Origin: a virus
Taxonomy: Duplodnaviria; Heunggongvirae; Uroviricota; Caudoviricetes
Length of the DNA: 43,689 nt
IMG/VR virus record: IMGVR_UViG_3300045988_038444
Location: 1-43,689 of that record
Strand: one strand, 5' to 3'
Shown here: piece after piece, positions 13,520-43,689 of the stretch
Layout of the letters: every line of letters begins with the position of its first letter
Numbering within the stretch: position 1 is the first letter of the stretch
The notes under the pieces: model-generated
What the model was told of the DNA's origin: nothing
Seen by the model: only the letters and a program-made list of their open reading frames with translations
Database searches by the model: none
Program-made: the position numbers and the translations under genes

Positions 13520-16101
13520 TATATTTTCCTGTTCGCATCATAGTTAGACCTGAACGCTTTATTCGTCTGACTGTACGGGTCATTCCATTGTGCCGCTGAT
13601 TGTCGTGGGAATTCTTCACCTATGATAAGCACTACGTCATCCCGTGTTAATCCTTGTTTCACCTGAACACGTTCGCCACCGTAGTTATGAACCTGAATAT
13701 TAGGTGATGAACCACCTTCAGATCCGGGGGTGTATGTCCCACGATTCATTGCTTCCAGAGTGCTACGATAACGACTCGTAGCCTGTTTGGTACTGACAAA
13801 TTCACCATTACTCAAACGTGCGTTTATACTGTCACTCTGACCTGTACCCGGACCTTTAACATAACCACCCGTTGCAAAACCTGTTGCGGCCACAGACTGA
13901 ATGTTACCTAACACGCTTGTCCCGTATGATAAAGCCTGTGCAATGAACGGAATATTCGCCGGGAACGGCAACGCCATAGCCTGACTAACGGCTGTCCACA
14001 GGTTAATACTCGCCTGTGCGATACTAAAGGCTTTAGACAGTGCAAACATCGCTTTATATGCGTTTGATTGCTCACCTTTAGATTGTGCCAGACCAGCAGC
14101 CATTTGACCCAAAAAATCAGCACTGGATTGTAGCAACAAGCTGTAGTTAGCATTTGCAAGATTCATACGGGCTTGTTCCCCGGCCTGTTGAATCTGCGTT
14201 TTCATGTCCTGGTATTGTTGCTCGTTAATTAAATCTTGTTCACGGGCTTGTTGTATGACAGTAAGGCGTTGTGCTTCCTGTTGATTAACCTGATCAACCT
14301 GTGATTGATACGGGTTTAACTCACCCTGTACATCGGTTTGTACCTGTGAAACCTGACCAGCTAACTGTTGCGCCTGCTGTTGACGTTGCAATGCAGCCAC
14401 ATGTGCATCAACAGCGGCACGTTCAGCATCAGTCGCGTCTTTATTCAGTCGTGACTGTGCTTCTGCCTGTTGTGATGCCAGCGTTAACTGTTGACGTACC
14501 TGATATTCTTTCTGATATGTTGCTGTAAGTTGTTCAACAGACGACCCCTGTGTTAAGGCAATCTGAACCTGTTCACGGGCTAACTGAACATCATAATTAC
14601 CAGCATTGATTTTATCCTGAAGCGTTTTCAGGTATTTCTGGTTAGCAGCCTGATTACGTTCCAGTTCTTTCTGTGCACGTTTAGCCGCAGATGCTTCAGC
14701 ACTCGCTGATTTCTTCTGGTTTTTTTGATTTTCTTTATATTCTGCCTGTTGTTTCAACAACGCAGCATAGTCTGCAATCTGTTCCTTAGTTGCTTTATTA
14801 CCCAGTTTCTGACTTGCTGCCAGTTCATAGTTACCGTCAGCAAGCGCCTGGGTGTAGGTGATCTGTTCTTTCAGGTTTTTAATCTGTTTTTGTGCTTTCG
14901 CGTCTGATGCATTTGTCCCTTTTATAGAAATAGGTTTTGTAGCATCACGGTTTTTTTTAGCTTGTTCGTATCCAGCCGCAGATGCTTTAACAAATCTATC
15001 AACCTGGTCATTGTACGCTTTTGCATTATTTACATCATCGTTTGACCAGACCAGATCAGCAAGGGATGCCCCAGTAGCACCTGGTTGTAACTTAGATATT
15101 ACGCCAGCTATTGACCACAATTTATCAGCAGTTGTTGAATCATCGCCTAATTTATTGATGAAACCTGTAAGTGTATCAATAGCGTTTACAGCAAGATTTG
15201 ATGCTCCAGTCACGTCATTCATGCTTGCAACAAGCGTGGCTAACGATACAGATAACGAATTCGTAGCTTGATCTAAAGACCGTGGCAATTTGCTAAATTC
15301 TTCATCAACATTTTGCGTTTGACGAATAATAGCATTCAATGCTTGTTCCGCTGTGAGTTCACCATCCAGCATTTGCTGACGTAACTCACCCATTGAAACA
15401 CCTAAACCAGCAGCCATCTGTCTTGCCAGTTCTGGCATCTGTTCAACAATGCTGTTAAATTCTTCCGCACGAACTACACCAGATGAAATTGACTGACCAA
15501 ACTGACGTAATGCGTTAGACATTTCTTCAGCAGATGAACTACCAACACGACCTATTTTTTGAAGTGTTTCAGTTAATCGTAATATCTGATCGTTTGTTGC
15601 GCCGCTATCCTTTAATGACGATGATAAGGTTTCCCATAAACGTTCAGTATCAGCAAGACCACCACCTGTTTTAGAGGCAATATCCGCGAGTGTTTGAAAT
15701 GTTTGTTCGGCTGATGATGTACTCCCGGTCAATCTTGCAATACGAGCTTCGAGTTGATTAGCTGCATCACCCGCAACAATAAACGCTTTTCCTAACTCAA
15801 TAGCAGAAGACACCGCACCTATTGCCATAAAACCACGAACGGCGTTTGTTGCAAGATTTACGCCAGATGCCATCGACTTTAAAGATGATGTAGCGTTACC
15901 AGTATTTGACGCCATTACTTGTGCAGATTTTGCAGCTTGCTGTTCACTTTTTGATAAAGTGTTTGCCGCTTGTGCAGCAGATTTTGCAGAATTAGCTGTT
16001 TGGTCTAACTGGTTATTAAGGCTGTTAAGATTTCTGTCAGCGTTACCAGTGTCTATTTTTATATCAATCGGATACTGTGCCATTGTGGTTAACCTTTTCA
16101 C
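13519..16101 (-). CDS. Tail tape measure protein
   Basis: 860 aa, long low-complexity alpha-helical Q/A/E-rich sequence, downstream of tail chaperone genes. Confidence 0.75.
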   Translation of the reverse strand: MKRLTTMAQYPIDIKIDTGNADRNLNSLNNQLDQTANSAKSAAQAANTLSKSEQQAAKSAQVMASNTGNATSSLKSMASGVNLATNAVRGFMAIGAVSSAIELGKAFIVAGDAANQLEARIARLTGSTSSAEQTFQTLADIASKTGGGLADTERLWETLSSSLKDSGATNDQILRLTETLQKIGRVGSSSAEEMSNALRQFGQSISSGVVRAEEFNSIVEQMPELARQMAAGLGVSMGELRQQMLDGELTAEQALNAIIRQTQNVDEEFSKLPRSLDQATNSLSVSLATLVASMNDVTGASNLAVNAIDTLTGFINKLGDDSTTADKLWSIAGVISKLQPGATGASLADLVWSNDDVNNAKAYNDQVDRFVKASAAGYEQAKKNRDATKPISIKGTNASDAKAQKQIKNLKEQITYTQALADGNYELAASQKLGNKATKEQIADYAALLKQQAEYKENQKNQKKSASAEASAAKRAQKELERNQAANQKYLKTLQDKINAGNYDVQLAREQVQIALTQGSSVEQLTATYQKEYQVRQQLTLASQQAEAQSRLNKDATDAERAAVDAHVAALQRQQQAQQLAGQVSQVQTDVQGELNPYQSQVDQVNQQEAQRLTVIQQAREQDLINEQQYQDMKTQIQQAGEQARMNLANANYSLLLQSSADFLGQMAAGLAQSKGEQSNAYKAMFALSKAFSIAQASINLWTAVSQAMALPFPANIPFIAQALSYGTSVLGNIQSVAATGFATGGYVKGPGTGQSDSINARLSNGEFVSTKQATSRYRSTLEAMNRGTYTPGSEGGSSPNIQVHNYGGERVQVKQGLTRDDVVLIIGEEFPRQSAAQWNDPYSQTNKAFRSNYDANRKI

Positions 16102-16145
16102 GAAGCATATACACAGTTTAACACGGGTCTAAAAAGCGACAAACG

Positions 16146-18839: not shown

Positions 18840-20297
18840 TCATGCTGTAGGCAGATATGGGAACAAGCTGAACCCAATCATAAAACCGATCGACTCTTCT
18901 TCGTGGGCGTTACCGCTAACAGTGACTTTCACTTTTTCGCCCGTCACAAGGTTTTTGGAACCGTCGCCCAGTGTCATCGCAGGAATGTTAACCACGATTG
19001 CACCGTCACCGTTTACCCCGGCAAGTTCGAAGTTGACTGTTGCGTTGTTACGGATCGCAGCCAGTACAGCACCGTCTGTCATCACCGTTTCAGTTTCCAT
19101 TGTGATTTCCAGGTTACCGATGTTGGTAAACGCAGCACCCATCACGCCCAGCACGTTTTCACCTGACACGTTGTTATTCACGGTGACAGTAACGTCTTTC
19201 AGGAACGTACTGAGTCCACTATCATCGATCCCGGTCAGTCGTACACGGTTCAGGTTCGTTACGGTGTTGTACGCTTCGTTAGCCACGAATTCAACATACC
19301 CGGAACCCGGCAGCGCGGTTTCTGACGGTGCTGATAAATCCTGTGCTACAAACGTCAGATCCATTGTCATTTTTTCAGTCAACGGTGCGTTGATCGTCAT
19401 CTGGTTTGCAGCTACAGCACGCGCATATTCATAAATAACAGGTGTCGTGTTGTAACGTACTTCCATTGTGTATTCAGTTTTAACGAACTCTGCAGAGTCA
19501 ACAGGAACGTTTCGAACAAAACTGGAAACAAATAAACGTACAGTTTTACCCGTACCTTCTTCAGTGGTGAATTCACTGTTAGCGAGAGTCAGAATATGAT
19601 CACCAACCATAGTCACACGGGCCATTTTACTGGTTACGGACTGTGTTAGACCATCAATATAAACATACTGTCCCGGTACTAAACCCAGTGTGGAAAAATC
19701 CAGGGTGGTAGACGTCAACTGACCATTACTGTTAACAGCGATTTCACCAGACGCTGCAGCATGCCCCACGAGATATAAACGAGCTTCAGCAGGCGGTGAC
19801 GCTTCGGCACTAAGCCCTGACACGTTGATAGCAGTAGTGGTACTATCAGCGCCTACAGTTTTCAAACCGTTGTTTGCAGCCAGTGTAAAACCTGTCGCAT
19901 AAACAAGAGCACCTTTAGGTAATGCCGCATCAAGAGTAGTAACGTTATAAGCATCAGCGCCAACACTGGTAACGTCAATATCAATTGCACCAGCACCGAC
20001 CCATTTACTATAAAGGAATCCGTCACCCCAGTAGCGGAACGTATCAAGTGTCAGGTCTGTCTGAAAGCCCGGTGCAACTTCAACGTTAGTTACCGTGCCT
20101 TTACGTGCAGATCGGTCCGTACTGATCGGTGTACGCTGAGTCTTTGTAATATCAGCACTGTAAGAACTGATTTCATTCGGTTGTTGAACCGTCCAGGGTG
20201 TACCAAAAACAGGTTCACAGACTTTTGCCACACTGAGTCGTGTTGCGTTTACATCAGTCGCAGGTGTTTGCGAACATTTAAAAATTGATTCAGCCAT
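18840..20297 (-). CDS. Major tail protein (putative)
   Basis: 485-aa Thr/Val/Gly-rich beta-type ORF upstream of the chaperones and followed by a terminator; assignment by position. Confidence 0.5.
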   Translation of the reverse strand: MAESIFKCSQTPATDVNATRLSVAKVCEPVFGTPWTVQQPNEISSYSADITKTQRTPISTDRSARKGTVTNVEVAPGFQTDLTLDTFRYWGDGFLYSKWVGAGAIDIDVTSVGADAYNVTTLDAALPKGALVYATGFTLAANNGLKTVGADSTTTAINVSGLSAEASPPAEARLYLVGHAAASGEIAVNSNGQLTSTTLDFSTLGLVPGQYVYIDGLTQSVTSKMARVTMVGDHILTLANSEFTTEEGTGKTVRLFVSSFVRNVPVDSAEFVKTEYTMEVRYNTTPVIYEYARAVAANQMTINAPLTEKMTMDLTFVAQDLSAPSETALPGSGYVEFVANEAYNTVTNLNRVRLTGIDDSGLSTFLKDVTVTVNNNVSGENVLGVMGAAFTNIGNLEITMETETVMTDGAVLAAIRNNATVNFELAGVNGDGAIVVNIPAMTLGDGSKNLVTGEKVKVTVSGNAHEEESIGFMIGFSLFPYLPTA

Positions 20298-26568: not shown

Positions 26569-26978
26569 TATTCCACATCCTCATAATATGCAGTTCCACC
26601 GATACTATATCCCGTATATTCACCAGTCTGAAACTTTTTCAAAACTTCGTCATCAGTTATCAACGTACCAACAATGACGCCTGTCTGATCCAGTTTATCA
26701 ACCAGTCCAAAACTTGCTGCAATGTCTTCGGTCATCGGGAACGCAAACACAACTTTCCCAACAGGTTGTTGATTATGCATATTATCCATGATGCGCTGAT
26801 CAGAATTCATGAAGTCCAACCATGCTTTCAGAGTGACATCCTCGGGAAATTGCTCGTTGTCCGTGTCTGTGTAAATTTCTAACTGACCTGTCTCCTGATT
26901 ACGTTTTTTACAGATACTACCCCAACCGAATACCATACGTAGTGAGTTGTCAACCTTATTAACTTTTACGTTAATCAC
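26568..26978 (-). CDS. Hypothetical head-module protein
   Basis: 136-aa ORF in the head gene block. Confidence 0.35.
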   Translation of the reverse strand: MINVKVNKVDNSLRMVFGWGSICKKRNQETGQLEIYTDTDNEQFPEDVTLKAWLDFMNSDQRIMDNMHNQQPVGKVVFAFPMTEDIAASFGLVDKLDQTGVIVGTLITDDEVLKKFQTGEYTGYSIGGTAYYEDVE

Positions 26979-27385
26979 GGGGATTGTCCTCGTATTGTTT
27001 CAACATGACTAAATTCTAACATTTCGGATGAATAATTGCACTGGTGATACACGCTGTTTACAACGTTACCGAATATCTCAGAAAGATTCTTGATCGGTTC
27101 AACAGCAGTCGTTACTGGTTCAACAGCAGTCGTTACTGGTTCAACAGTAGTCGTTACCGGTTCAACAGTAGTCGTTACCGGTTCAACAGCAGTCGTTACT
27201 GGTTCAACAGCGTCCAGATGTTCAGCGACAACCTGGAAAAACACTGTGTTAGTTTCACGGTCAATAATAACCACTGTGCTGGAACTATCTTCAACAATGC
27301 TGAATGAGTAGTCGTAACGATCACCGTGAATTTTACGGGCGCGACGAATGAATTCGTCTGTAGCAACTCTGATGTTCGGATCCAT
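26975..27385 (-). CDS. Repeat protein: N-terminal KYDYS module followed by six VEPVTT(A/T) heptad repeats
   Basis: Start taken at ATG 27385 (MDPNIRVATDEFIRRARKIHGDRYDYS...); the N-terminal module matches the repeat unit of the T5orf172 genes. Confidence 0.5.
   Translation of the reverse strand: MDPNIRVATDEFIRRARKIHGDRYDYSFSIVEDSSSTVVIIDRETNTVFFQVVAEHLDAVEPVTTAVEPVTTTVEPVTTTVEPVTTAVEPVTTAVEPIKNLSEIFGNVVNSVYHQCNYSSEMLEFSHVETIRGQSP
27105..27218 (-). repeat. Coding tandem repeat, 21-bp unit (ttcaacagcagtcgttactgg on the plus strand), about 5.5 copies
   Basis: Direct repeats visible at 27105-27218; encode VEPVTTA heptads on the minus strand. Confidence 0.85.
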
Positions 27386-27411
27386 ACATTCAACCCTTCT
27401 TGTTCTCTTAA

Positions 27412-27456
27412 CCACAGGGTAGTTGTGTCGGTGTAATCCGTCAAGAATTATTTTGC
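27412..27456 (-). promoter_or_regulatory. Inverted copy of the conserved early promoter, reading leftward
   Basis: Plus gtaatccgtcaagaattatttt is the reverse complement of aaaataattcttgacggattac; downstream leader nearly matches the plus copy at 27742. Confidence 0.6.
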
Positions 27457-27526: not shown

Positions 27527-27640
27527 ACTTATACTACTCTTCTATTTATCTATGTTTATTATGTTTTCTATAAAAAGATAACAAAAAGAATAAGATAGAG
27601 AGGGGTTGGTTAAAAAGTAAACATGACGAAATATATGAAT
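27527..27640. repeat. Conserved ~110-bp noncoding element, copy A (core 27567-27632)
   Basis: Core tctataaaaagataacaaaaagaataagatagagaggggttggttaaaaagtaaacatgacgaaat recurs at 42643-42708 with 4 mismatches in 66 nt. Confidence 0.8.
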
Positions 27641-27652
27641 CTATGATCTACT

Positions 27653-27733
27653 AATACACGTTCTGTATTAGCCGCAACTCAAAATCATGAAACCTATGTA
27701 GAACTATGTGCAGTTAGTACACGTTCTGTATTA
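27653..27733. promoter_or_regulatory. Two operator-like inverted repeats aataca-cgttc-tgtatt, 63 bp apart
   Basis: aatacacgttctgtatt at 27653-27669 and gtacacgttctgtatta at 27716-27733, just upstream of the promoter at 27742. Confidence 0.4.
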
Positions 27734-27741
27734 ACTGCATC

Positions 27742-27786
27742 TTTAAAATAATTCTTGACGGATTACACCGACGCAACTATCTTGTG
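27742..27786 (+). promoter_or_regulatory. Conserved early promoter copy (-35 TTGACG 27755-27760, -10 tatctt 27778-27783)
   Basis: ctttaaaataattcttgacggattacaccgacgcaactatctt. Confidence 0.7.
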
Positions 27787-27814
27787 GTTAACAGGAAGAA
27801 AAAGGAGACATGCA

Positions 27815-41697: not shown

Positions 41698-42333
41698 TTA
41701 TTTAAGCGCTTTCTGATACAGTTGCGCGATGTCGTCAATAGTTGCACCTTCAGGAACACTCTGAACCACGTTTCCAACCACACCAGACAATTCCACACGG
41801 TCGATACTGTTCCCGGTGATCTTATCCAGTTGTTCAGACGCTTTTGCACGAGTTTTCGGGTCGAACAGTTCACGTGTCACCAGAATGTATCCACCCAGCA
41901 TGTAACGTTTGTAGCAAACTACGTACTGTTGTAGATGGCTGGGGATATCGTCGGTACTGTTCACCCACAGGTGTTTCGCTTCCGTGTCGTCTTCACCAGG
42001 AACGATGACACGCTGACAATACGGTTCCAGTAATTCTTCAGCCGTGCTTGCCGCTCGTTTCCACCACTCGACACGACTCGTTAACGATTCCCCTACAGAC
42101 TCAAGCGCATGACTTCCCATCGCGTCCAGATAGTTCAACACCTTCGTATTCGACAGGAGGCGATGTGCGGTCGTTGCAGCCGCTGCATCAGACGTGTGAC
42201 CCGGATAAGCCTCTAAAACACATCGCGTATTGCTGAAGCCGTTATTGACACGATCTAACCACAGGTTGGCGAACTTGAGCTGTTCCGGCGACAACTCCAG
42301 AGCAGCCCTTTTAGCCCGGTCTGAAATTTTCAT
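41698..42333 (-). CDS. Terminase small subunit-like protein (Terminase_2-type N-terminus)
   Basis: Start at Met 42333 after gggaga; LSPEQLKFANLWLDRVNNGFSNTRCVLEAYPGHTSDAAAATTAHRLLSNTKVLNYLD fits the small-terminase DNA-binding pattern as I recall it. Confidence 0.5.
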   Translation of the reverse strand: MKISDRAKRAALELSPEQLKFANLWLDRVNNGFSNTRCVLEAYPGHTSDAAAATTAHRLLSNTKVLNYLDAMGSHALESVGESLTSRVEWWKRAASTAEELLEPYCQRVIVPGEDDTEAKHLWVNSTDDIPSHLQQYVVCYKRYMLGGYILVTRELFDPKTRAKASEQLDKITGNSIDRVELSGVVGNVVQSVPEGATIDDIAQLYQKALK

Positions 42334-42602
42334 AAATTTGTCTCCCATAAATTTTAAATTAGTTTCCCACAGATACCCACGGGTTGTCCACACGCCCTGT
42401 TTTACAGCTAATACAATGTTAATATTAAGTTTACAGTTAGTGCACAATATGCATTAATTTTCGACTATATACATAAATACGTAGCCCATAATCACAATGA
42501 TTTCAAAGACTTGCATAAAAACATAGATTACAATAGGTATCTCCCAGACTTTTATTTTAGCTCTATTTACAGCTAATACACTATATGCACTATCTCTATC
42601 TT

Positions 42603-42712
42603 TCTATACTACTTCTTCTTTATATCTATGTTTTCTATGTTATCTATAAAAAGATAATAAAAAGAATAAGATAGAGAAGGGTCGGTTAAAAAATAAACAT
42701 GACGAAATCTAT
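42603..42712. repeat. Conserved ~110-bp noncoding element, copy B (core 42643-42708)
   Basis: Matches 27527-27640; core 62 of 66 nt identical. Confidence 0.8.
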
Positions 42713-42729
42713 GTTAAGTATAACTTTAA

Positions 42730-42855
42730 TGCACAACATGCACTATATAATTCACAACGTGCATTAGCTGTGCCAACATAGATACACAACGTGCACTAAC
42801 AGTTAATACACAACGTGCATCTTGCACTAACTGCTAAAGCACAACATGCACTAAG
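42730..42855. repeat. Iteron array: five direct repeats of cACAAC(A/G)TGCA(C/T)TA
   Basis: Copies at about 42731, 42752, 42784, 42807 and 42839, spaced 21-32 bp, upstream of the HTH repeat-protein gene. Confidence 0.7.
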
Positions 42856-42938
42856 TGTAAATACACTAACATATAAAGCACGTCTTGCACTAGCTGCTAA
42901 TGCACGTTATGATTTATCCGTGGTCAAACAAGAAGGGT

Positions 42939-43689
42939 ATGATAATGAAAAAGAACCTTTTAGACGAATTAATAGATTTAAAAGGCGGGGTACAAAACGC
43001 TGTTGAATACCTTAATCGTCGAGGTGTTAAGGTGACTGTTGGTCGTTACAACCAATGGTTAAGCGGTAGGTTTCATCCTAAATATGAAACGATCAGTATT
43101 ATTCTTGAAGAGATTACTGACTTCACACTGTCACCCTTGCCAGTACAACATTCTGACGAAAACATTGTTCTTAAACACACAATACCGGTTACCGAACTGC
43201 GTCAGAAATTACCACACAGACGTTTTGCTAATAACTACTGGCAACGTGTCAGATACGTTGATTCACAGATCCTGGAAGCTGTTCACGGTCACGACGTGTG
43301 GACACGGTTTGAGGCGATGTGTGGTAATTTTGAATGTGCAAGATATGTGCTACGCAGAAATTTAAACGAACACACAATTACTGACAGTTGGATTCAAAAT
43401 GGTTTGCGCCGGGGATGGATCCCGGAATGTGTAAACGTAATGGTCGATTTGCTTGAAAAATACGAAGGCACCGGGACACCGTTTAACGTAATGGTTTGTG
43501 AACCACCTGTATCACGAGTGGAACCACCTGTATCACGAGTGGAAGCACCTGTATCACGAGTGGAACCACCTGTATCACGAGTGGAAGCACCTGTAGCACG
43601 AGTTGAAGCACCTGTAGCACGATTTGAACCGCCTGTAGTCGATGTCAGCGATTTGAAGGAGAAAATCAGACTGTATGCGTTATCACACA
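42939..43689 (+). CDS. 5' part of an XRE-type HTH protein with Pro-rich heptad repeats (3' end beyond the window edge)
   Basis: ATG 42939 after aagaaggg; open to the last base of the window, so absent from the track; NAVEYLNRRGVKVTVGRYNQWLSG is HTH-like; C-terminus is (E[PA]PV[SA]RV)x6. Confidence 0.55.
   Translation, partial: MIMKKNLLDELIDLKGGVQNAVEYLNRRGVKVTVGRYNQWLSGRFHPKYETISIILEEITDFTLSPLPVQHSDENIVLKHTIPVTELRQKLPHRRFANNYWQRVRYVDSQILEAVHGHDVWTRFEAMCGNFECARYVLRRNLNEHTITDSWIQNGLRRGWIPECVNVMVDLLEKYEGTGTPFNVMVCEPPVSRVEPPVSRVEAPVSRVEPPVSRVEAPVARVEAPVARFEPPVVDVSDLKEKIRLYALSH
43500..43640 (+). repeat. Coding tandem repeat, 21-bp unit gaaccacctgtatcacgagtg with variants, about 6.5 copies
   Basis: Direct repeats visible; encode EPPVSRV / EAPVARV heptads. 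Confidence 0.85.

Follow-up and report, generated by a model that had tools for sequence, protein, structure and literature searches.

The window analysed here, a whole stretch of 43,689 nucleotides, is a Sashavirus with 95% identity to Escherichia phage Bas82. Its right end (42300-43689) is 92-97% identical to Sashavirus and Nonanavirus phages (KarinMuster_Bas82 and the Salmonella phages Sasha, Sergei and Solent), and Salmonella phage 9NA is a more distant relative of the same region. Phages of the 9NA/Sasha type are virulent siphophages without lysogeny genes that package their DNA by the headful mechanism from a pac site, and their lifestyle has been described as unstudied (PMC4153490). Near the right end of the window the gene for the small terminase subunit and a gene that we call R diverge, both apparently monocistronic, from non-coding DNA that carries an array of short repeats next to a conserved AT-rich block. 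The features are the following:

41698-42333, minus strand: small terminase subunit gene (phrog_51, E 8e-11, and a weak Pfam Terminase_2 match), divergent to R
42334-42944: non-coding region of 611 bp, GC 32%, with the terminase start placed as in the records of Sasha, Sergei and 9NA, at an ATG
42443-42456, plus strand: distal left site, CACAATATGCATTA, 1 mismatch, 110 bp upstream of the terminase start
42579-42592, plus strand: left-flank site, CACTATATGCACTA, 2 mismatches, 31 bp before the first tandem 9-mer and 12 bp before the 109-bp block
42605-42713: conserved AT-rich block of 109 bp, GC 24%, with tandem 9-mers followed by A-tracts
42624-42650: three tandem 9-mers, ATCTATGTT / TTCTATGTT / ATCTATAAA
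42732-42745, plus strand: site S1, CACAACATGCACTA, exact, the first to the right of the AT-rich block
42753-42766, plus strand: site S2, CACAACGTGCATTA, exact, 21 bp past S1
42785-42798, plus strand: site S3, CACAACGTGCACTA, exact, 32 bp past S2
42809-42829, plus strand: site S4, CACAACGTGCATCT, with an extra overlapping half-site TGCACTA at 42823-42829
42840-42853, plus strand: site S5, CACAACATGCACTA, exact, missing together with S6 in three relatives
42879-42892, plus strand: degenerate site S6, CACGTCTTGCACTA, 3 mismatches, with the TGCACTA half
42898-42911, minus strand: inverted site S7, CATAACGTGCATTA, 1 mismatch, 34 bp before the R start codon
42945-43689, plus strand: gene R, cut by the window end, with an N-terminal XRE-type HTH, a central domain and a coding repeat

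The small terminase is annotated as such in the records of Sasha, Sergei and Bas82, and the two gene calls of the initial annotation, a small-terminase-like gene on the left and an HTH protein with a repeat on the right, were borne out. The DNA between them is AT-rich and divergent as had been described, but the length of some 490 bp that had been given for it is approached (497 bp) only with the longest-ORF TTG start of the terminase and is otherwise 611 bp. Two small ORFs that run across the array (42726-42827 on the minus strand, 42815-43006 on the plus strand) are absent as conserved ORFs from Sashavirus BDX09P1 and from 9NA and were treated as spurious. No RNA element above noise was returned by Rfam over 42200-43100. 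The records of the Sashavirus phages 536P12 and BDX09P1 both open at window position 42362/42363, 29 nt upstream of the terminase ATG and directly past a TATCTGTGGGAAA motif; this position may correspond to a DNA end that was mapped, to the start of a transcript or to a convention. In protein P0001 (316 aa), predicted from a JGI contig, the terminase ORF, with its N-terminal extension and first residues, is joined to R at residue 8 of the latter; either an inversion has taken place between these divergent genes or the protein is an assembly chimera.

Exact copies of the motif CACAACRTGCAYTA start on the plus strand at 42732, 42753, 42785 and 42840, and the fifth, at 42809, departs from the motif only in the final two bases. 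These are the copies that the initial annotation had listed as five regularly spaced direct repeats. Their positions were correct, but the spacing (21, 32, 24, 31 and 39 bp, with S6 included; 34-65 bp in 9NA) is only roughly regular, and neither here nor in 9NA is it clearly in phase with the helix, as in a spacing of about 22 bp. Nor are the copies plain direct repeats. Each unit is a 13-bp palindrome, TGCAC-AAC-GTGCA, with 5-bp arms and an asymmetric AAC centre, followed by an oriented YTA tail, and therefore looks like a dimer site that still has a direction. The motif family reaches beyond 42730-42855, with members at 42443, 42579 and 42879 on the plus strand and at 42898-42911 on the minus strand, so that the five same-orientation copies within 42732-42853 have four more close by. 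The additional TGCACTA half-sites that had been noticed in the vicinity are likewise real: 7 of the 11 copies in the window fall within 42438-42892.

A chance origin of the repeats is excluded by their numbers. With at most one mismatch, CACAACRTGCAYTA has 7 matches in 43.7 kb where 0.13 are expected, and six of the seven lie within 470 bp (42443-42911). In Markov randomisations none of 300 runs exceeded a single match per 500 bp, and at the composition of the intergenic region 0.004 matches are expected per 611 bp. The array is subject to recombination as well: 23-nt repeats at 42820-42842 and 42883-42905 have recombined in the window-type variants L020, L023 and L026 (IMG/VR and ENA contigs), deleting 63 bp with S5 and S6. 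Within the window type the relatives are about 95% similar, too close for the conservation of sites to be discriminated from that of spacers.

Only S6 and S7 overlap a promoter-like element, the weak TTGCAC-17-TATGAT. S6 overlaps its putative -35 hexamer TTGCAC (42885-42890), and S7, which sits between this hexamer and the -10-like TATGAT (42908-42913), is a candidate autorepression site for R. An inverted site just before the R start is also found in the Klebsiella-type phages, and in 9NA a site lies between promoter-like hexamers at the start of R. All statements on promoters are tentative, since a consensus scan found promoter-like sites to be no commoner than in shuffled sequence.

To the left of the array, positions 42574-42673 form the least stable 100-bp duplex of the window (z 4.3), the region of a second block being next (z 3.8). 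The first of the tandem 9-mers, ATCTATGTT, occurs in five exact copies in the window (42624, 42707 and 27548, and on the minus strand 42520 and 42775) against 0.46 expected, and all of them lie in these two loci. It constitutes a second motif family, and one that is independent of lineage. The core of the block and its three tandem 9-mers are kept in 9NA, in contig L025 and in the Klebsiella phages, though their flanks cannot be aligned with the window. Sites are found on both sides of the block, one or two on the left and five or six on the right. The left-flank position is occupied by an own-type site in 9NA, L025 and the Klebsiella phages, and in BDX09P1 only by a degenerate own-type match (3 mismatches). 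The distal left site is CACAACATGCACTA in most relatives. A hairpin or cruciform was rejected as a conserved feature of the block, its z value being modest (-2.5) in the 42.6-kb copy and -0.5 in the 27.5-kb copy.

The second block lies about 15 kb from the first, in the same orientation and with 90% identity, where genes again diverge and the head operon begins:

27530-27735: second locus, a block copy followed by two palindromic sites
27530-27637: copy of the AT-rich block
27650-27671 and 27713-27735: second-locus sites CTAATACACGTTCTGTATTAGC and GTTAGTACACGTTCTGTATTAAC; minus-strand reading CAGAACGTGTAYTA, 2 mismatches from the motif

In 9NA the second locus has two perfect or near-perfect sites of the 9NA type, and in Klebsiella phage phi_270 it has two sites of the Klebsiella type. 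Since the window, 9NA and phi_270 all show this arrangement, the block and its cognate sites are paired at two loci in three lineages. The block recurs at the second locus of BDX09P1 too, there with window-type sites rather than its own.

The surroundings of the second block have further structure. It is bracketed by a 61-nt inverted repeat (27394-27454 and 27745-27805, 85% complementary), each arm of which holds an outward sigma-70-like promoter (right TTGACG-17-TATCTT, left TTGACG-17-TACCCT) and a gene start; the sequence of the right-arm promoter, AATAATTCTTGACGGATT, is conserved in 9NA and phi_270. The four genes that face outward from the two block loci all have a motif TAyCyyGTGGnnAA (42375-42366 and 27421-27410 on the minus strand, 42915-42926 and 27778-27789 on the plus strand) 25-35 nt upstream of their start codons; this motif occurs nowhere else in the intergenic DNA of the window and may represent a promoter or leader element that they have in common. 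On the left of the second block, the first gene (26975-27415, minus strand) encodes a protein of 146 residues with six tandem VEPVTT[AT] repeats, like the VEPPV-type repeat of R; it has no family match, and the gene is apparently missing from 9NA. The minimum of the detrended cumulative GC skew falls on the second block both in 9NA (16036, block at 15994-16105) and in BDX09P1 (19297, block at 19203-19310; all in record coordinates). As this minimum coincides with the start of the long head-tail operon, the skew was rejected as a diagnostic marker of an origin.

R consists of four parts. Its variable N-terminal domain of about 60 residues has an XRE-type HTH (residues 1-60) and is followed by a central domain that is conserved, by a linker in which 7 residues are repeated and, past the window end, by a C-terminal domain, likewise conserved, of about 45 residues. 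About 190 conserved residues lie outside the HTH. The closest structural matches of the N-terminal domain are repressors and anti-CRISPR-associated regulators. The linker (PPVSRVE/APVARVE, or PPVxRVE) is encoded by a 21-nt tandem repeat at 43500-43646 that is unrelated in sequence to the sites of the array; its copy number runs from 3 in Solent and BDX09P1 to 14 in Sasha, and is zero in 9NA. It is this coding repeat, not the intergenic sites, that is annotated as 'direct tandem repeat region' in Sasha and Sergei. The end of the window, and probably also that of the contig from which it comes, ERZ1035001 NODE-155 (locus L027), falls within the coding repeat or just past it, which suggests an assembly break.

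Homologues of R are called 'hypothetical protein' in all records and fall into PHROG 25538, with 13 representatives among 1.84 billion proteins. For R no Pfam or NCBIfam family rose above threshold (NCBIfam gave only one match below it, to an unrelated family), a sequence search of the PDB was empty, and in Pfam there was no Rep_3 or winged-helix signature and no similarity to Phage_rep_O. In an hhalign comparison the central domain has a weak resemblance to the N-terminal one (P 1.9e-4 over 54 columns). One may speculate that the central domain is a second HTH, which would read the constant 9-mers. In the Klebsiella phages phi_270, VLCpiS10a and KP13-27 (L017-L019) the central domain is tandemly duplicated, which brings R to 308-311 residues.

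A comparison of genomes reveals a clear association between the repeats and the N-terminal domain of R. Four N-terminal domains that differ clearly from one another occur at this place in the genomes, each with a repeat of its own:

Window type (14 genomes or contigs): repeat TGCACAACGTGCAYTA
9NA and contig L025: repeat TAACAC-N3-GTGTTA
Klebsiella phages phi_270, VLCpiS10a and KP13-27: repeat CAGCTTACCAGATGT
Sashavirus BDX09P1: repeat ACTATNANAGGATTA

BDX09P1 represents a natural swap. Its R differs only in residues 1-70, the central domain compared being 97% identical to that of the window and the C-terminal domain identical to that of relatives, and the main array has been exchanged along with these residues; the site just to the left of the block was probably exchanged too. 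In FSL SP-062 (L016, KC139637) a stand-alone domain of the 9NA type accompanies an R with a Klebsiella-like domain, and sites of both kinds are present. Here (281-1170) the extra domain is encoded by a 69-residue ORF directly before the full R and looks like the footprint of a domain replacement. Across the whole genome of 9NA all own sites with at most one mismatch fall in this intergenic region or at the second block, and in BDX09P1 own-type sites occur genome-wide only upstream of R. The N-terminal region of the terminase varies as well among the window, BDX09P1 and 9NA; between 9NA and BDX09P1 it differs at 8 of about 70 residues, with unrelated repeats.

Thus, the repeats are almost certainly the DNA docking sites of the N-terminal HTH of R, a reading based on four types, one swap and one hybrid. 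The initial annotation had proposed an operator cluster for the adjacent HTH protein, and as to which protein binds which sites this is strongly supported by the change of site sequence whenever the HTH changes; a purely transcriptional role is one rival reading among those weighed below. The association is not absolute, as the second locus and the distal left site of BDX09P1 are still of the window type (the latter a perfect copy) despite the other R domain. A second window-type HTH protein that would explain these orphan sites was sought in BDX09P1 by tblastn, and none was found. Binding at them is therefore dispensable, or another protein is involved; the mismatch fits a recent recombination and suggests that the outlying sites may be dispensable.

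The anatomy of the region resembles that of a replication origin, because sites lie on both sides of an unstable block with 9-mers, the gene of the putative binder is adjacent, and an inverted site lies at its start. By this architecture the array and the block are a good but unproven candidate for the origin of the phage, a reading that the initial annotation had listed as well. We consider an initiator-iteron origin with autoregulation by R to be the best reading of the region and prefer it to a role as operators only, at a probability of roughly 0.45. Each 13-bp palindrome would take one R dimer, and R on the array would form the origin complex of a virulent phage, in which the array would bend and melt the AT-rich block. 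The central and C-terminal parts of R, on their flexible PPVxRVE linker, would recruit the helicase-primase of the phage. The last, inverted site over the R promoter would shut off R synthesis, as in iteron plasmids, and the second block with its two sites at 27.5 kb would serve as a second origin or an auxiliary site.

Further points count in favour. The array varies in copy number through recombination of its units. Among the genes of the phage are those of a polymerase, of a helicase and of a P4-family primase, but none is annotated as that of an initiator. The conserved central domain and the tethered C-terminal domain would suit the recruitment of a partner. Other points count against an origin. 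XRE-type HTH proteins are mostly transcription regulators, and R matches no known initiator family; the spacing of the sites has no clear helical regularity; the second locus and the distal left site of BDX09P1 do not match its R domain; a divergent promoter region offers an ordinary alternative reading for AT-richness and repeats; and in 9NA and BDX09P1 it is the second block, not this one, on which the GC-skew minimum falls.

One parallel in design is with the origins of iteron plasmids, which combine initiator repeats with a DUE carrying 13-mers (PMC4980987). Common to the origins of pSC101, P1 (oriR), F (ori2), RK2 (oriV) and R6K and the present region are about five same-orientation sites beside an AT-rich element whose short tandem repeats are 13-mers in the plasmids and 9-mers in the window, the adjacent gene of the binder and an inverted copy of the site at its promoter. 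In pSC101, F and P1 such inverted repeats serve autoregulation. There are differences, too. The binder here has an XRE-type HTH and no Rep_3 or winged-helix signature, each site is palindromic and of the dimer type whereas iterons bind monomers, and the spacing is irregular. Moreover, the element resides in a virulent phage with its own helicase, primase and polymerase, and its replication function is putative.

A second parallel is the origin of phage lambda, where at least four palindromic repeats beside an AT-rich region are bound by dimers of the N-terminal domain of O. In lambda, phi80, 82 and P22 this domain and the repeats have been exchanged together while the C-terminal effector part stayed constant. 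The present phages share the joint exchange of domain and repeats, the constant C-terminal part and the palindromes near AT-rich DNA; the sites of lambda, however, lie inside the gene rather than upstream of it, and R has no similarity to Phage_rep_O. The genome of satellite phage P4 has the same repeats in two separate clusters, ori and crr, and a single initiator binds both. Two site clusters per genome are found here also, and the phages encode a P4-family primase. In P4, however, it is the alpha protein, the primase-helicase itself, that binds the repeats, and replication requires both clusters, whereas the second cluster of BDX09P1 does not match its R.

The origins of SaPIs have iterons on both sides of an AT-rich centre, read by an island-specific, separable DNA-binding domain (PMC9371898). 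The flanking of central AT-rich DNA by sites on both sides is shared with the window. In contrast to R, which has no ATPase domain, the SaPI binder is the Rep helicase, which acts via a winged-helix on iterons of 5-6 bp. Repeat-rich, AT-centred non-coding DNA upstream of the terminase gene is also found in distant relatives, Proteus phage PmiS-Isfahan (L034, 1349-2483) and Morganella phage Henu15 (L035, 1623-2459), whose terminases are 32-33% identical and which have 0.8-1.1 kb of non-coding DNA there with repeat families of their own. PmiS-Isfahan carries four to five copies of TAAAGTGAAACAC and three 21-bp tandem repeats. In Henu15, repeats of the GTGTTGCACTTT type flank an AT-rich centre on both sides, as in SaPI origins, those on the terminase side in opposite orientation. 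Henu15 gp31 was not significant as a homologue of R (P 0.013 over 27 columns) and was kept only as a positional analogue.

Taken further, R may be a new kind of phage initiator, in which an exchangeable XRE HTH would read lineage-specific iterons, a central HTH-like domain would read ATCTATGTT and recruitment of the helicase-primase would fall to a C-terminal domain held on a variable, proline-rich tether, with two origin-like loci per genome, at the terminase gene and at the head operon. In this full form the proposal is speculative and rather unlikely.

A purely transcriptional operator cluster is the most serious rival and quite possible. R would then be a Cro/CI-like regulator of a virulent phage, without a role in replication: its dimer would repress its own promoter and repress or activate promoters near both blocks (those of the terminase, the head operon and the small-gene cluster), while the DNA of the AT-rich block would belong to a promoter or an UP element. 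The structural matches of the N-terminal domain agree with this, and so do the palindromes, which are of ordinary operator size, and the position of S7 between promoter-like hexamers at R. In addition, a 9NA site lies in the terminase leader, the inverted site of the Klebsiella phages covers the ribosome-binding region of R, the second-locus sites are found some 60-130 bp upstream of the conserved TTGACG-17-TATCTT promoter, and the TAyCyyGTGGnnAA leader motif is shared by the four outward genes of the two loci. Cro/CI operator modules likewise have an XRE-fold HTH and palindromes of 13-17 bp between divergent genes, and their HTH and operators are exchanged as a cassette. However, eight or nine sites over 470 bp are many for a simple autoregulator and far more than in Cro/CI modules, and most of them are tied to the AT-rich block, which is coupled to sites at two loci, rather than to a promoter. 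The promoter scan, no richer than shuffled sequence, speaks against an operator role as well. At the second locus the window and 9NA differ in the distance between site and promoter by some half turn of the helix, as read from the sequences, and the conserved promoter there is so near to consensus that an activator should be unnecessary. The roughly 190 further conserved residues of R, including the tethered C-terminal domain, would be superfluous for a repressor, and Cro/CI modules differ in this respect too. Unlike the temperate phages that have Cro/CI modules, the group is virulent and has no lysogeny genes (PMC4153490).

It is improbable that the repeats have some other function, in a nucleoid-like or partition-like complex, as a host-defence decoy or as recombination hot spots, or that they are a relic or due to chance. 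The phage group does have several recombination genes and a ParB-like gene, the latter annotated in the records of Bas82, Sasha and Sergei, and the array changes in length by recombination, but chance is excluded statistically, the co-variation with the R domain across lineages requires selection on a protein-site pair, and nothing ties the sites to ParB.

More improbable still is the packaging initiation region that the initial annotation had listed, a pac region at which the small terminase would recognise the repeats or the block, with R possibly as an accessory specificity factor, and make the first headful cut. The region does lie directly upstream of the small terminase gene, as does pacL of SPP1, and 9NA packages from a pac site (PMC4153490). 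Zeng et al. (2019) reportedly found the initiation cuts of 9NA to be spread over about 170 bp, a spread similar to the length of the array; papers that cite this mapping study give no coordinates for the 9NA pac cut. Several GenBank records have been opened inside the region, but at different places (window 42362, 42608, 42640 and 42690), and these starts therefore look like conventions rather than mapped ends. The terminase N-terminal region does vary among the lineages, but the few differences between 9NA and BDX09P1 stand against unrelated repeats, so that the sites follow R and not the terminase domain. Moreover, the DNA of 9NA yields a single pac fragment (PMC4153490), where block and cognate-type sites occur twice per genome in the window, 9NA and phi_270 and a single copy would be expected.

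Among the records of 9NA/Sasha-type phages inspected, none annotates the array, names R or marks an origin or an early regulator. What appears to be new here is a specificity cassette of DNA-binding domain and repeat that has an XRE fold, resides in a virulent phage and is coupled to a duplicated block of the unwinding type. A putative DNA target can thereby be assigned to PHROG 25538, a family whose proteins are called 'hypothetical' throughout, and the natural specificity-swap experiment has already been done several times. Salmonella, E. coli and Klebsiella are common hosts of this type of phage, which is under development for biocontrol. Bas82 is a tractable member, for which E. coli K-12 serves as a host once its O-antigen is restored (PMC11990801), and the exact sites given here allow simple tests in this phage. 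If an origin with R as its initiator is indeed what the region represents, a protein of the XRE fold would join the known types of initiator; if not, the region would still be a clean case of co-evolution between operators and an HTH in a virulent phage.
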